From the IMG/VR virus record IMGVR_UViG_2671180846_000018: a DNA stretch of 18,561 bases; one strand, given 5' to 3'. Shown here in pieces: positions 6,001 through 12,000 of this stretch. The first letter of the stretch is position 1. Each line of letters starts with the position of its first letter. Made by a program: the position numbers. The stretch comes from a virus (lineage: Duplodnaviria > Heunggongvirae > Uroviricota > Caudoviricetes).

Positions 6001-9000
6001 AAACATATGCCCGACAATGTGATCCTTATGCAGAGCCACCGCATTAGCCGCTATTCCGTTATTGCGCACCAGATCATCTGCCCGGGCATTCCCCAGACGC
6101 AACGCGGGCAGCAGGGCCGCATCGGCACTCTGCGCCGGTGGCAACCACTCAGCCATTTGCCCGCCAAATCCTGCACCGCCCCCGTTGTAGCTGAGACTCT
6201 CACGAAGCGGAACGCCGTTCACATCAATCAGGACAGGCGTTCGTTTCATAACCTCACTCCCAGCGGACGACGGCGACGCCGGGTTGTCCCCAGTACCGAC
6301 TCCGCATCATTGATCGCCCGGTTAAGCTCATCCAGAGAAGCCGCCGTATATTCAATTCTGCGACCATCTTTCTGGACAGACACCACCCGTTTACCGGTTA
6401 ATAAATCAAGGCGCGCCTGACGCAGCGCCTGCAGTTCAGCGACTGTAACCATTCACTCCTCCGGACAGCTTCGCTGCCAGTTCTTTCAGGGTTGGCCGGG
6501 TCGTCTCTTCTTCCCGGGATTTTGCCAGTACAGCCAGATCAAGCTGCCAGCGTTGCACGGACACACGTAATGCCGCGTAGGCATACACCAGGCAGTCCAG
6601 CGCTTCGTTACGCCGCTTTTTGTTATCCCACAGCAGACGCATCTTTCCTTTTTCTCACTTCTCCACCAGCTCTTCCGCCACCAGTTGCTGCGCCTCTGTC
6701 TGCGAAAAAATCTCCGGATCATCAGGAAAACGGATGGCATACGACGTGGCTTCATCCGCAGGCGTGGGATCGGCTTTCATACGGGCATAGAGAATTTCTT
6801 TTGCGGTGTCCGTTCCCACTTCACACAGATACACGCCCCGCTGATTGCGGGTTTTCGGCATGGTGATCACCGGCTTGCCATAGACAGACGCGCCTTTTAC
6901 CGGCAGCACCCGGAAAACACCGTGTTTTTTTGATCTCTGATAAACAATTTCACCATCGATCCCCCCGGTGTCCCAGCAGACACGGGAAATGGTCATTTCG
7001 GTGCCATCCGCATGGCGGTATTTTTTGTTGATCGCAGCATCCACACGTAACAGCGTCCCTTCCTCATCGGGACGCCCCATAATGATGATTTTATCCACCA
7101 GAAAGGCTTCCTCTCCCGGTGCCCATCCCCAGACATACATCTCAAAACGGTTTCGCTGCGAGTCAATGCCCGCCGTCAGATAAACCACCCGGGAAGGCAC
7201 CGCAGCCGTGTAACGCACAACCTTATCCATCAGTACCTGGTGATCGAGTTTTTCGCCCACGGCCTCTTCCCAGGTCTCGCCCAGCGTGGTGTTCACAAAG
7301 GTTTTCAGGCCGTTGGGATCTTTCAGTGCATCCAGCCAGTCATAGACAATCTGTACCCAGGTGGTGAACGGACTGTACGCCGTCCAGATATGGAACGTGA
7401 TGGAGCGCGGCGGCGGAATTTCATCACCCCGGGCGCTGAAAAACGTCAGACCGTCACGGGTCCACATGCCCGTGTTTTCACAGATCCACCGCCCGTTGCT
7501 CTGGTCCAGTTCAGACTGATGGATCACGCAGCCATGATGTTCACAGAGGTAGAAAACACTTTCAGGGCTGTCCTTCTCCCATTTAAGCCCAAAAGGCGTG
7601 GACTCATCGCCAAATTTCAGATACTGCTCCTCCCCACAGTGCGGGCAGGGCACATAAAAACGCATAAAATGCGCCGACTCGTTAGCGGCTTTTTCGATCT
7701 GGCAGGTGCCTTTGATTTTAGGCGTCGAGCCGCGAATGGATTTTGGCCACACCGACCCCTCAATACGCTTATCCCCCAGCAGGGTTGGCGAGCCCTCTTT
7801 TTCGACATCCGGCTCGAACGAGGAAAGTTCGTCATAGCAGACCACGTCCACGGATTTTTCACGGTAGTTTTTGGCGGCAGCGCCGCCCAGGCACCAGAAA
7901 CCGACGCCCGATGAAAAGCGTTTCAGCGTGAGAGTATTGTCACGATGTTTACGACCCAGCCATGGGGAAAGGTCTTTCAGGCATGGCACGTTCCGAATCG
8001 TCGCCTCCACGTGAGACTTCATAAAATCTTCAGCGGCAGAATCCGTGGGCTGAAAAAGCAGACTGTTTCGGGATTTATGCTCAATAAAATACCCGACCAC
8101 CCCCAGCAACATCTTTGTATAGCCAACACGGGCAGATTTAATCAGATTAACAGTGCGGATCTGATCATTCCCCATGCTGTTCATGATGGCGATCTGGAAT
8201 GGCAGCGTTTTCCATTCTCCCTCACCATATGAAGATTCTTTAGGCAGATAATAATTTTGATCAGCCCATTCAACTGGCGTCACCGGCAATGCCCTTATCA
8301 GGGGCTGTAATGCTGTTGTGACAGCACTCATCATATTATTCAGTTGTTGCTCTGATATATTCATCGAGTAAATCCGGTAATTTATCCCCCGCCCGCGCAC
8401 ACTGATTTGCCCCCTTCGCAATAAGGGTTTTCAGATGGTCAAGATGGCGCGGTGTTAAATCAGGAAACTGTCGTTGCATGGATAAAGGGATGGAATCAAG
8501 CGTACTGGATAACGCCATTGCCAGCTTACTGAGGGCAAAAATACAGAACCCGGTGTCAATAAGTTTTCCTTTTGACACCTCATTTTTTAACTGCTGTGTA
8601 ACAGCCTGTTCTGCTGTCAGTTCCCATCTGGCAATAAGCAATTTTTCCTCATAGTCGTCTTCGCTATCGCCATCAGGCACATCGTTTTTACTTCTCCTCA
8701 GATACGATATGTAAAAATCGCGCCAGGCATCCAGATCCAGTTGCCCTCGCTTATTTGATATCGGGGCACCCGGCAATTTCTGCAATCTGCGAAGCTGGCG
8801 ATCGGTCAGACTTAAATGCCTGGCAACTTCAGTCTGCGTAGCCACTCCTCACCTCGCAAAAACTCTCACCTCACAATCACAACAAAACCGGTCATGTCCG
8901 GTTTACATGTCTGTTTTTTGTTCATGTCCGGTTCACAGAAGACCTGTTTTTATATTTTTCATATAGTTAACTTGAAGAGAAACCGGACATGGATCCCGGA

Positions 9001-12000
9001 AAATTTTCATAAATAGCGAAAACCCGCGAGGTCGCCGCCCCGTAACCTGTCGGATCNNNNNNNNNNNNNNNNNNNNNNNNNNNNNNNNNNNNNNNNNNNN
9101 NNNNNNNNNNNNNNNNNNNNNNNNNNNNNNNACAACAACCCGCAACATCCGCTTTCCTAACCAAATGATTGAACAAATTAACATCGCTCTTGAGCAAAAA
9201 GGGTCTGGGAATTTCTCAGCCTGGGTCATTGAAGCCTGCCGTCGGAGACTAACGTCAGAAAAGAGAGCATATACATCAATCCAAAGTGATGATGGATGAA
9301 CATCCCGGTTTCTTCCACCATCGCACCGGAAAAGCGACTATGAGGGTAACCCTGCGTCTGTCNNNNNNNNNNNNNNNNNNNNNNNNNNNNNNNNNNNNNN
9401 NNNNNNNNNNNNAAGGAATTCCCCGTCGGGCTACGGTCATGGTTAATGCGGGAATACGGCGACGATACAGCGCAGCTAAAAGGGTAATGGACAGATAGAG
9501 CGGTTTATTTCATTCCACAGGATTCTGAGTGCCCCCCTCCTCCAATAGGCTGAGCATCCACCTATATAGTTTTAATTTTCATCAATCCATTTAACTATCG
9601 TTTAATTGTTGTCACATAGGATTCTGCCGTTTTTAACAATGCAGGATAATAAGATGAAAAAAATGTTGTTTTCTGCCGCTCTGGCAATGCTTATTACAGG
9701 ATGTGCTCAACAGACGTTTACTGTTGGAAACAAACCGACAGCAGTAACACCAAAGGAAACCATCACCCATCACTTCTTCGTTTCGGGAATTGGACAGGAG
9801 AAAACTGTTGATGCAGCCAAAATTTGTGGCGGCGCAGAAAATGTTGTTAAAACAGAAACCCAGCAAACATTCGTAAATGGATTGCTCGGTTTTATTACTT
9901 TAGGCATTTATACTCCGCTGGAAGCGCGTGTGTATTGCTCACAATAATTGCATGAGTTGCCCATCGATATGGGCAGCTCTATCTGCACTGCTCATTAATA
10001 TACGTCTGGGTTCCTTCCAGTTGTTTTTGCATAGTGATCAGCCTCTCTCTGAGGGTGAAATAATCCCGTTCAGCGGTGTCTGCCAGTCGGGGGGAGGCTG
10101 CATTATCCACGCCGGAGGCGGTGGTGGCTTCACGCACTGACTGACAGACTGCTTTGATGTGCAACCGACGACGACCAGCGGCAACATCATCACGCAGAGC
10201 ATCATTTTCAGCTTTCGCATCAGCTAACTCCTTCGTGTATTTTGCATCGAGCGCAGCAACATCACGCTGACGCATCTGCATGTCAGTAATTGCCGCGTTC
10301 GCCAGCTTCAGTTCTCTGGCATTTTTGTCGCGCTGGGCTTTGTAGGTAATGGCGTTATCACGGTAATGATTAACAGCCCATGACAGGCAGACGATGATGC
10401 AGATAACCAGAGCGGAGATAATCGCGGTTACTCTGTTCATTGCTGACCCCACAAACAGATTTCACGCTCAATCTCACGACGAGTCATGAGACCTTTCCAT
10501 TGCTTACCGCCAGCATATGTCCAGCGACGTAGCTGATCACATGCGCCTTTGATATCGCCCTGGTTTATTTTGCGAAGAAGCGTCGATGTNNNNNNNNNNN
10601 NNNNNNNNNNNNNNNNNNNNNNNNNNNNNNNNNNNNNNNNNNNCGACAGTGGCAAGGTCTTTATTCAAGAGTGCTTTGCATTCTGCTTTGGTATACGTTT
10701 TACCGAGCATGATGTCTTTTCCTGTATGCCCGTGACATACAGTCCATACACCAACAATATCTTTGTATGGTATGTAGCTGACACCTTCCAGACCATCGTT
10801 ACCACTTGGGCCAGTGATTAACACTGATGCTATAGCAATTGCTCCGCCACCAATAGCAGCAGCAACGGCTTTTCGTAATGATGGAGGCATTATTCACCTC
10901 TCGCAGCCTTGCGCTTATCTTCTTTAATCTTGAAATAAAGGTTTGTCAGGTACGTCAGCAGGCCAAATACCAGGCTACCCAGCACACCTATTGCTGCCCA
11001 CTGTGAGGGCGTGACTTTATCGAGCAGCTGTAAAAACCAGTAACCGGCACTACCTGCTGAGGTGCCATAGGCGACACCCGTTGTTAACTTATCCATGGAT
11101 TTCATAACCCCACCTCGCAGACAAAGCGGGTGTAAATTGAGGGAATACAACGTATCGCAAAAAAGCAGAAACGTAACAGACTCGGAGTCAGTGAATAACT
11201 CAGGTATTGGGTTATCAGCTAATATCGAGACTCAAAAAATGGAAAAACCCGCTCGACGGCGGGTTTAAGCTGTGTGACGAAGTAACCACTCTTAACAGCA
11301 TAACCAATTTTTTACGTACGTAAACCACTAAATGATATTTGCGAGAATGCTACCGAGTATTGAAAACACCACTACAAATACATAAACAAATCTCAACAAA
11401 TAACCAACAAATAATTTCCAGCGTTATTTTTAGCCGATTTAAATTGAACCTTCAAATTATAGGGCACTTATAAATAACAGCCATTAATATAAATTGGCTA
11501 ATAGATTTATTTTTATTCAGCCAAGAGCCATGAATAGGATTCGATAGAAAAAGTTCAGATAAAAATAGAGATCTACTTCACAAATCAAATGAGAAACCAA
11601 AACTTACATCTTGAAATAATCACATTGATTAGATGAATATTTATCGCGCAGTGACATCATTTTTTAATAATAGTTCAAAAAAAAGGGCTCACGATGAAAA
11701 AATTAACAGTGGCAATTTCTGCTGTAGCTGCATCAGTACTGATGGCGATGTCTGCTCAGGCAGCTGAAATTTATAATAAAGACAGTAACAAGCTGGATCT
11801 GTACGGGAAAGTTAATGCTAAGCACTACTTCTCCTCTAATGATGCAGATGATGGTGATACTACTTATGCCCGTCTTGGCTTCAAAGGTGAAACCCAAATC
11901 AACGATCAACTGACTGGTTTCGGTCAGTGGGAATATGAATTCAAAGGCAACCGCGCTGAATCTCAAGGTTCCTCCAAAGATAAAACCCGTCTTGCCTTCG

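Follow-up and report, generated by a model that had tools for sequence, protein, structure and literature searches.

We found that the window analysed here, an 18,561-nucleotide stretch of viral DNA (IMG/VR record IMGVR_UViG_2671180846_000018), carries a lambda-type cohesive end site (cos) joined to an unusual set of repeats. The source region is a lambdoid prophage with head genes of the phage 21 type. Window 8885-9056 is very probably a lambdoid cos site whose cosB segment forms one cognate, exchangeable cassette with the terminase small subunit (TerS) and the N-terminal tip of the large subunit (TerL). With more reserve, we lean towards the joint proposal that the TCCGGTT-type cosB and the winged helix-turn-helix domain of TerS proteins beginning with 'MATQ' constitute a fourth natural lambda-like packaging specificity, and that the satellite island EcCICFT073 has, as its cos2, a captured copy of this cosB. 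The class is widespread, occurring in about a fifth of complete E. coli genomes, and seemingly unstudied. In the numbering used here, lambda bp n corresponds to window position 9041-n, and the lambda-type genes lie on the minus strand of the window. The parts of the site and its genes are as follows.

9041..9056, minus: final 16 bp of the right arm, GATCCGACAGGTTACG, exactly as at the right end of lambda
9029..9040, minus: cosN, 12-nt cohesive end GGGCGGCGACCT, bp 1-12, read directly and the same as in lambda and 21
8996..9028, minus: I2-like AT-rich segment, bp 13-45, lying between cosN and R3 and the same as in lambda
8980..8991, minus: R3-equivalent putative TerS site CATGTCCGGTTT, bp 50-61, at the R3 position and invariant in 38 E. 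coli variants
8957..8969, minus: I1-equivalent candidate site for integration host factor (IHF), TAACTATATGAAA, bp 72-84, with two mismatches to YAANNNNTTGATW
8923..8933, plus: R2-equivalent, bp 108-118, inverted relative to R3, assigned by its spacing and nearly invariant across variants
8893..8904, plus: third site, CATGTCCGGTTT on the plus strand, bp 137-148, in R2 orientation and 30 bp from R2
8885..8896, minus: fourth, degenerate copy CATGaCCGGTTT, bp 145-156, in R3 orientation, overlapping the third site and forming a palindrome with it
8845..8336, minus: TerS open reading frame (ORF), GTG start at bp 196, full length (169 aa), followed by TerL and head genes
8681..8845, minus: TerS N-terminal DNA-binding domain, a MerR-like winged helix-turn-helix
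8336..8680, minus: TerS acidic linker, oligomerisation helices and C-terminal TerL-binding part (Nu1 family, PF07471)
8185..8364, minus: N-terminal ~60 codons of TerL, within the swapped cassette, 30-70% identical to 21 gp2
6436..8184, minus: remainder of TerL, phage 21 type by identity, with TGG>TGA at codon 570

A lambda-type cosN followed by a different cosB

The window is 100% identical to many lambda records over 61 bp, from bp -16 to +45 (9056..8996). This includes cosN (9040..9029), which matches lambda and phage 21 exactly. Since the identity runs through bp +45, the 33 bp past the cohesive end, forming the AT-rich I2 element between cosN and R3, are also those of lambda; an earlier note on this DNA had placed the shared piece at cosN plus about 35 bp, and our comparison agrees. 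I2 (bp ~18-50) is conserved in lambda-like phages, and lambda requires bp 30-35 of it (PMC4856287). The window cosQ, expected at about 9065-9071, is unreadable because 9057-9131 is a masked run of N, which also conceals the start of a YnfO-like ORF adjoining cos. In two near-identical loci (L005 and L006), from an O157:H7 chromosome and phage PhiR12_1, cosQ is GGGTCCT at -30, as in lambda.

Beyond bp 45, exact copies of CATGTCCGGTT are found at 8893-8903 (+), 8923-8933 (+) and 8981-8991 (-). These are the three 11-bp repeats, two direct and one inverted, that the earlier note had described; a fourth copy with one mismatch (CATGaCCGGTT), at 8886-8896 (-), had escaped it. The four matches are all that exist in 18.5 kb, and they lie within 106 bp (0.38 expected; four were reached in one of 200 shuffles). 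Their arrangement is that of a complex cosB, with R3 near bp 50, an IHF-type site and an inverted R2 about 60 bp away. The aligned 9-mer stands at bp 50 (R3) and, inverted, at bp 110 (R2), with the best IHF-like sequence at bp 72; the counterparts in lambda and 21 stand at 52, 112-113 and 74, respectively. The internal spacings, 22 bp from R3 to the IHF-like site and 60 bp from R3 to R2, equal those of lambda and 21, and the module as a whole is shifted toward cosN by 2 bp. The same positions (bp 50, 72 and 110) recur in all relatives with a complex cosB. The AT-rich candidate IHF site of the earlier note occupies the position of I1 in lambda and 21, but as a match with two mismatches; the window cosB contains no match to the IHF consensus with one mismatch or fewer.

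We compared 38 unique E. coli-type cosB sequences collected from IMG/VR. R3 is invariant, R2 and the third-site core CCGGACATG are nearly so, and the spacers vary freely. The fourth copy, the least conserved part of cosB, is probably dispensable, since several variants have lost it or carry it in mutated form, and cos2 of EcCICFT073 lacks it. In one IMG/VR contig (L084), a 30-bp deletion has merged R2 with the third copy, so that R3 and one inverted site remain; this looks like recombination between two direct repeats. The third and fourth copies together (window 8885-8904) form a palindrome with a 7-bp stem, followed by TTTTGTTGTG, and this segment has a weak terminator-like score.

The cassette in its phage 21 backbone

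The genes around the repeats are largely those of phage 21. TerL shares 92% identity with 21 gp2 and 66% with lambda gpA, and W, portal, C, D and FI show 97-99% amino acid identity to their phage 21 counterparts. TerS is only about 40% identical to 21 gp1, and this over the C-terminal half alone. In sliding comparisons with phage 21, one break point falls where I2 ends, directly past bp 45, and the other near TerL residue ~60; past this residue TerL is 95-100% identical to 21. Thus, the replaced cassette comprises cosB, the whole of TerS and the N-terminal tip of TerL. Its limits coincide with known functional domains: TerS binds cosB through its N-terminal domain and, phage-specifically, TerL through its C-terminus, and TerL in turn binds TerS through its own N-terminus (PMC9026076). 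The earlier note had proposed an exchange of the N-terminal third of Nu1 in a small terminase with a lambda-like C-terminal half. The swap itself stands, but its surroundings are 21-like and the exchanged unit is larger, extending from bp 46 of cosB through the entire TerS to the first ~60 TerL residues. Within the head region (window 1839-8364), the major capsid protein is 84% identical to that of phage 21, and TerL has a second patch of lower identity at about window 7900-8022.

The TerS start used here is also the one annotated in RefSeq and in PhiR12_1. The central and C-terminal region of TerS belongs to the Nu1 family: Pfam Phage_Nu1 (PF07471) matches aa 49-150 only (E 1e-18, profile positions 62-163), and PHROG 57 and 1790, both terminase small subunit, are also matched. 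In tblastn, the TerS proteins of lambda, 21, phi80 and N15 align from residue ~59-73 onward only, at 40-47% identity, and 21 gp1 at residues 83-179 only, at 40%. The 'lambda-like C-terminal half' of the earlier note is therefore true at the family level only. Its different N-terminal third is borne out in that this part of TerS matches neither lambda, 21 nor N15, yet the fold is not a foreign one. Lambda-type N-terminal domains matched modestly in a profile-profile comparison (hhalign; E 1e-4, probability 56%), in a register in which window TerS residue n equals lambda residue n+1. This domain is homologous to the winged helix of Nu1, though highly diverged; it is MerR-like, as in lambda Nu1 and in the Rpp proteins of phage-inducible chromosomal islands (PICIs), and has the winged helix-turn-helix expected of a Nu1-family DNA-binding domain. 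Foldseek was informative with a model of the isolated N-terminal domain alone; the full-length model (predicted local distance difference test score 68) gave no significant match. A PDB sequence search with the TerS profile found no match, and NCBIfam has no model for this TerS. A pairwise sequence match between the domain and RppA is weak (E 0.013 and 0.002), and we do not rely on it.

We considered two other identities for this protein. A PICI Rpp protein was rejected, as the window encodes a complete 169-aa TerS followed by TerL and head genes. Homologues bear names such as 'Qin prophage Nu1-like', suggesting an origin from the K-12 Qin prophage. However, K-12 NohA (L201) and its cos are of the lambda type, so that the Qin name is an annotation carry-over.

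Co-variation of the R sites and the TerS N-terminal domain

The specificities of lambda, 21 and N15/Monarch have been described (PMC4669245), and the window class and its motif go unmentioned in the searchable literature. The window has no lambda-type R sites (CGTTTCC(T/G)TTCT), and its N-terminal domain lies outside the Pfam Nu1 match (the Nu1 helix is RTIQNWQEQ). Nor does it have the phage 21 combination of R sites TCATGTCGG(A/G)CC and gp1 helix PRTIERWQSQ, with which only TCATGTC is common. The N15/Monarch R3 GAGGTTGTTGTT and N-terminal domain sequence LLNKSDMASSLGISVQAFDKW are likewise absent from the window and present in N15-type control loci. A comparison of the repeat with the published 21 and N15 R sites, which the earlier note had suggested, thus matched it to neither, the shared TCATGTC core of 21 (TCATGTCGGnCC) apart.

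We then investigated the relatives of the window TerS. A first scan of viral contigs gave 99% identical copies only, and relatives had to be sought with diverged query sequences; a scan of genome contigs with the TerS alignment yielded a single distant locus, in an Azospirillum metagenome-assembled genome, which was of no use. Three classes of N-terminal domain are found on related Nu1-type C-termini, namely those of lambda/21/phi80, those of N15, and the window class, beginning MATQxEVA. In all relatives with a window-type domain but one, a TCCGG-type site occupies the R3 position, ~bp 50-62 counted from the nick; the exception, L197, has CGTGTCGTGTC. The site reads CA(T/C)(G/T)TCCGGTT in enteric and Aeromonas relatives and CG(T/C)(T/G)TCCGGTT in Pseudomonas-like phages. 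The rule also holds in simple cosB forms, which have one site directly upstream of the start codon, and in phage phiARM81ld, whose record begins at cos, this site is at bp 52-62. These simple forms have a tandem hexamer as their site (TTCCGGTTCCGG, GTGTCCGTGTCCGG, GTGTCGTGTC). The motif persists in other genera down to TerS proteins with 35-45% identity. Recognition helices and sites pair as follows.

Window: helix LTDRQLRRLQK, site CATGTCCGGTT
L132 and L134: helix ITERWLRDLQK, R3 CACTTCCGGTT, R2 GACTTCCG(G)TT
L136: helix LTDRQLRNLQK, site CATTTCCGGTT in three copies
phiARM81ld, LPPA33 and others (Aeromonas, Pseudomonas and GC-rich relatives): one copy of C(A/G)(T/C)TTCCGGTTCCGG, ~20 bp upstream of the start codon

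One position of the helix follows the site. In the enteric group, TerS residue 20 is Arg wherever the fourth site base is G (xxxGTCCGG), and the Arg20-G pairing recurs independently in two Pseudomonas-like lineages, L141 (CGTGTCCGGTT) and L197 (CGTGTCGTGTC). Where the fourth base is T (xxxTTCCGG), residue 20 is one of N, D, S, T and K (15 helix groups). The hhalign register reveals a parallel pairing in phage 21 (L001; Arg21 with G56) versus lambda (L002; Asn21 with T56). Published genetics stress residues 20 and 24. On the DNA side, bp 56 is one of the two positions that set lambda/21 specificity (PMC4669245). TerS residue 20 (residue 21 of lambda and 21) may thus have a role in specificity.

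A natural swap is seen among GC-rich Pseudomonas-like contigs of IMG/VR. L152-L160 and L177-L185 have homologous cosN flanks and TerS C-termini that are 91% identical, combined either with a window-type N-terminal domain and GCTTCCGGTTCC or with an N15-type domain and GGTTGTTGTT, the R3 of N15. Judged from these alignments, this is a clean natural cassette exchange. The suggestion of the earlier note, that repeat and binding domain co-vary like the lambda and 21 specificity pairs, is seen directly in the comparative data.

Prevalence and the satellite island EcCICFT073

We counted carriers over complete E. coli genomes, requiring both the window-type cosB and the TerS N-terminus. Both are present in 1167 of the 5426 genomes, with a median of 2 copies per carrier, and carriers include O157:H7, O26, O127:H6 and CFT073. 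The cassette is intact (97% DNA and 99% amino acid identity) in the phage records PhiR12_1 to _5, whose listed host is E. coli K-12 MG1655 or E. coli C. For 'PhiR12' and the repeat strings, no phage paper was found in the literature searched.

In CFT073, two lambdoid prophages flank the island EcCICFT073. The icd prophage, published as the helper 'phage 4', is exactly of the 21 type in gp1 and R sites. The potC prophage encodes TerS WP_000235436.1, the same protein as in O157 and 99% identical to the window TerS. The two prophages have near-identical heads and different cassettes. The island itself has two cos sites: cos1 lies directly upstream of rppA (bp 1 at L208 17558), and cos2 is convergent with rppA. 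We identified cos2 as follows.

L208 18162-18345 (NC_004431.1 about 1,388,162-1,388,345), minus: cos2 of EcCICFT073, window-class cosB

It consists of cosQ, cosN, I2, R3 CATGTCCGGTTT, an IHF-like site, R2 and the third copy, with no TerS following. It matches the PhiR12 cosB nearly base for base, and the homology stops right past the third copy, near bp 147. The cos2-rppA arrangement is found in 53 complete genomes. The authors of the PICI study reported that neither cos had a phage cosB that they could identify, and found that RppA-TerS uses cos1 and not cos2 (PMC6739421); we found no later treatment of cos2 in the searchable literature. That a satellite keeps exactly the segment from cosQ through the third copy argues that R3 to the third copy is the functional cosB. 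From its sequence, cos2 may let EcCICFT073 be packaged directly by helpers of the window class.

Alternative explanations

The strongest alternative is that the window carries a drifted phage 21 specificity and no separate class, the two terminases recognising each other's cosB. The 21 R sites are annotated in the phage record as AATCGTGTCGGTACTT, TTTCATGTCGGACCTT and TTTCATGTCGGGCCTT; their general form TCATGTCGG(A/G)CC and the window form TCATGTCCGGTT both read TCATGTC..GG, Arg stands at the equivalent helix position, and the head genes are 97-99% identical. Moreover, N15 terminase packages lambda DNA in spite of differing R sites (PMC4669245). Against this, the TerS N-terminal domains are unalignable by BLAST or Pfam, the whole TerS and the TerL tip are replaced rather than drifted, and the sites diverge past position 7 and are 3 bp apart in register. 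CFT073 also holds true 21-type and window-type prophages side by side, with different cassettes. We therefore consider drift from 21 unlikely.

The repeats could instead be operators, for a late-gene regulator or for YnfO- or PerC-type proteins, or the palindrome could be a terminator. Small DNA-binding genes do adjoin cos, and the third and fourth copies give a hairpin followed by a T run, with a terminator-like score. However, no promoter-like site was found in the repeat region, the R3/I1/R2 geometry from the nick is maintained, and the sites co-vary with TerS and not with the neighbouring genes, which differ among loci; the fourth copy, which makes the hairpin, is the least conserved. A role outside packaging is thus very improbable. 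Hardly credible at all is a dead relic, with a non-functional cos and TerS and repeats kept merely by recent common descent: the window TerL has a premature stop and the O157 copy has frameshifts in TerL and the portal gene, but PhiR12 phage records carry the cassette intact, the motif is kept in other genera with TerS 35-45% identical, and a satellite island retains exactly the cosB part.

Several observations weigh against a functional cassette of separate specificity. The TCATGTC shared by the window repeat and the 21 R sites makes partial cross-recognition by the 21 terminase possible, and the Arg20-G association comes from few independent events. In lambda, shifts of R3 beyond 1-2 bp are harmful (PMC4669245), and here R3 is 2-3 bp nearer cosN. 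The IHF-like site is a weak consensus match, with two mismatches; the annotated I1 of lambda likewise has two by our own count, and the sister lineages L132/L134 have a perfect consensus at the I1 position. The third site is oriented opposite to R1 of lambda and 21, so that the higher-order complex may differ; a canonical R3(+) R2(-) R1(+) arrangement is found in the relative L136. The nonsense codon in TerL (window 6657..6655, where PhiR12_1 has TGG) removes the C-terminal 72 residues, including the portal-binding part, and the window prophage is therefore probably unable to package on its own, though its cos may still serve in trans. TerL and the portal gene are frameshifted in one O157 copy. 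Finally, we found no binding or packaging experiment on a window-type site in the searchable literature.

Proposed function and implications

In the proposed cos cassette, cosQ, cosN and I2 would be shared, non-specific elements, used by TerL in all lambda-like phages. The specific part would be cosB, made up of R3, an IHF-type bend site, the inverted R2 and a third, inverted copy. A hairpin induced by IHF could join R3 and R2 for a TerS dimer, as proposed for lambda. TerS bound to the R sites would then anchor TerL over cosN, leading to staggered nicks and the start of packaging. The R sites, all of TerS and the tip of TerL that binds it would act as one recognition cassette, which replaced that of 21 and would confer a packaging specificity distinct in sequence from those of lambda, 21 and N15; we infer that these would not cross-package with it.

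The DNA that can be mobilised by a phage, by another prophage in the same cell or by a satellite depends on packaging specificity. Several lambdoid prophages, their heads nearly identical, are present in pathogenic E. coli; a separate cassette would separate their packaging lines, or link the ones that have it in common. If cos2 is a captured window-type cosB, EcCICFT073 would have two packaging routes: one at cos1 by RppA with a TerS of the lambda, phi80 or 21 type, and one directly at cos2 by window-class helpers. The link offers a testable reason for two cos sites in islands of this type. The window class is also a natural data set for the code by which the winged helices of lambda-family terminases recognise DNA; if our proposal is true, it would become testable whether Arg20 reads G and Asn reads T at the equivalent of lambda bp 56.

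Neighbouring genes

Next to cos, window 9132-9270 (+) encodes the C-terminal part of a YlcI/YnfO-like small protein. Further genes encode a Bor lipoprotein (9645-9947, +), an OmpC/NmpC-type porin (11694-12776, +) and a Q antiterminator (12965-13363, -). The porin gene, situated between Q and the lysis genes, is lysogenic-conversion cargo. Masked runs of N occupy window 292-347, 9057-9131, 9363-9412, 10590-10643 and 18273-18322.

Comparison with known packaging systems

Phage 21 is the nearest system. It shares with the window an identical cosN, the R3/I1/R2 spacing, head genes with 97-99% identity, TerL with 95-100% identity past residue ~60, TCATGTC in the R sites, and Arg at the equivalent position of the recognition helix. 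The R sites differ, however (CATGTCGGnCC in 21 and CATGTCCGGTT in the window), as do the whole TerS (N-terminal domain unalignable, C-terminal half ~40% identical) and the first ~60 residues of TerL, and the window module is nearer cosN, with its third site inverted.

Lambda is identical to the window over bp -16..+45, and its TerS starts at bp 191, compared with bp 196 in the window. Both have the three-domain TerS plan, the winged helix-turn-helix fold and a complex cosB with an IHF-type site between inverted R sites. In contrast, the CGTTTCC R sites of lambda and phi80 are missing from the window, the Nu1 Pfam profile misses the window N-terminal domain, and the head proteins are 52-70% identical to those of lambda.

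The N15/Monarch system resembles the window class in having a distinct class of N-terminal domain on Nu1-type C-termini, in the exchange of this domain and R3 as one cassette, and in occurring with a simple cosB (one R3) as well as with a complex one (three R). It differs in R3 (GAGGTTGTTGTT) and in the helix (GISVQAFDKW), neither of which is found in the window. In the Rpp/cos1 system of the PICIs, Rpp lacks the TerL-binding C-terminus and forms a heterodimer with phage TerS on cos1, unlike the complete window TerS, and the cos2 of EcCICFT073 has a window-type cosB.

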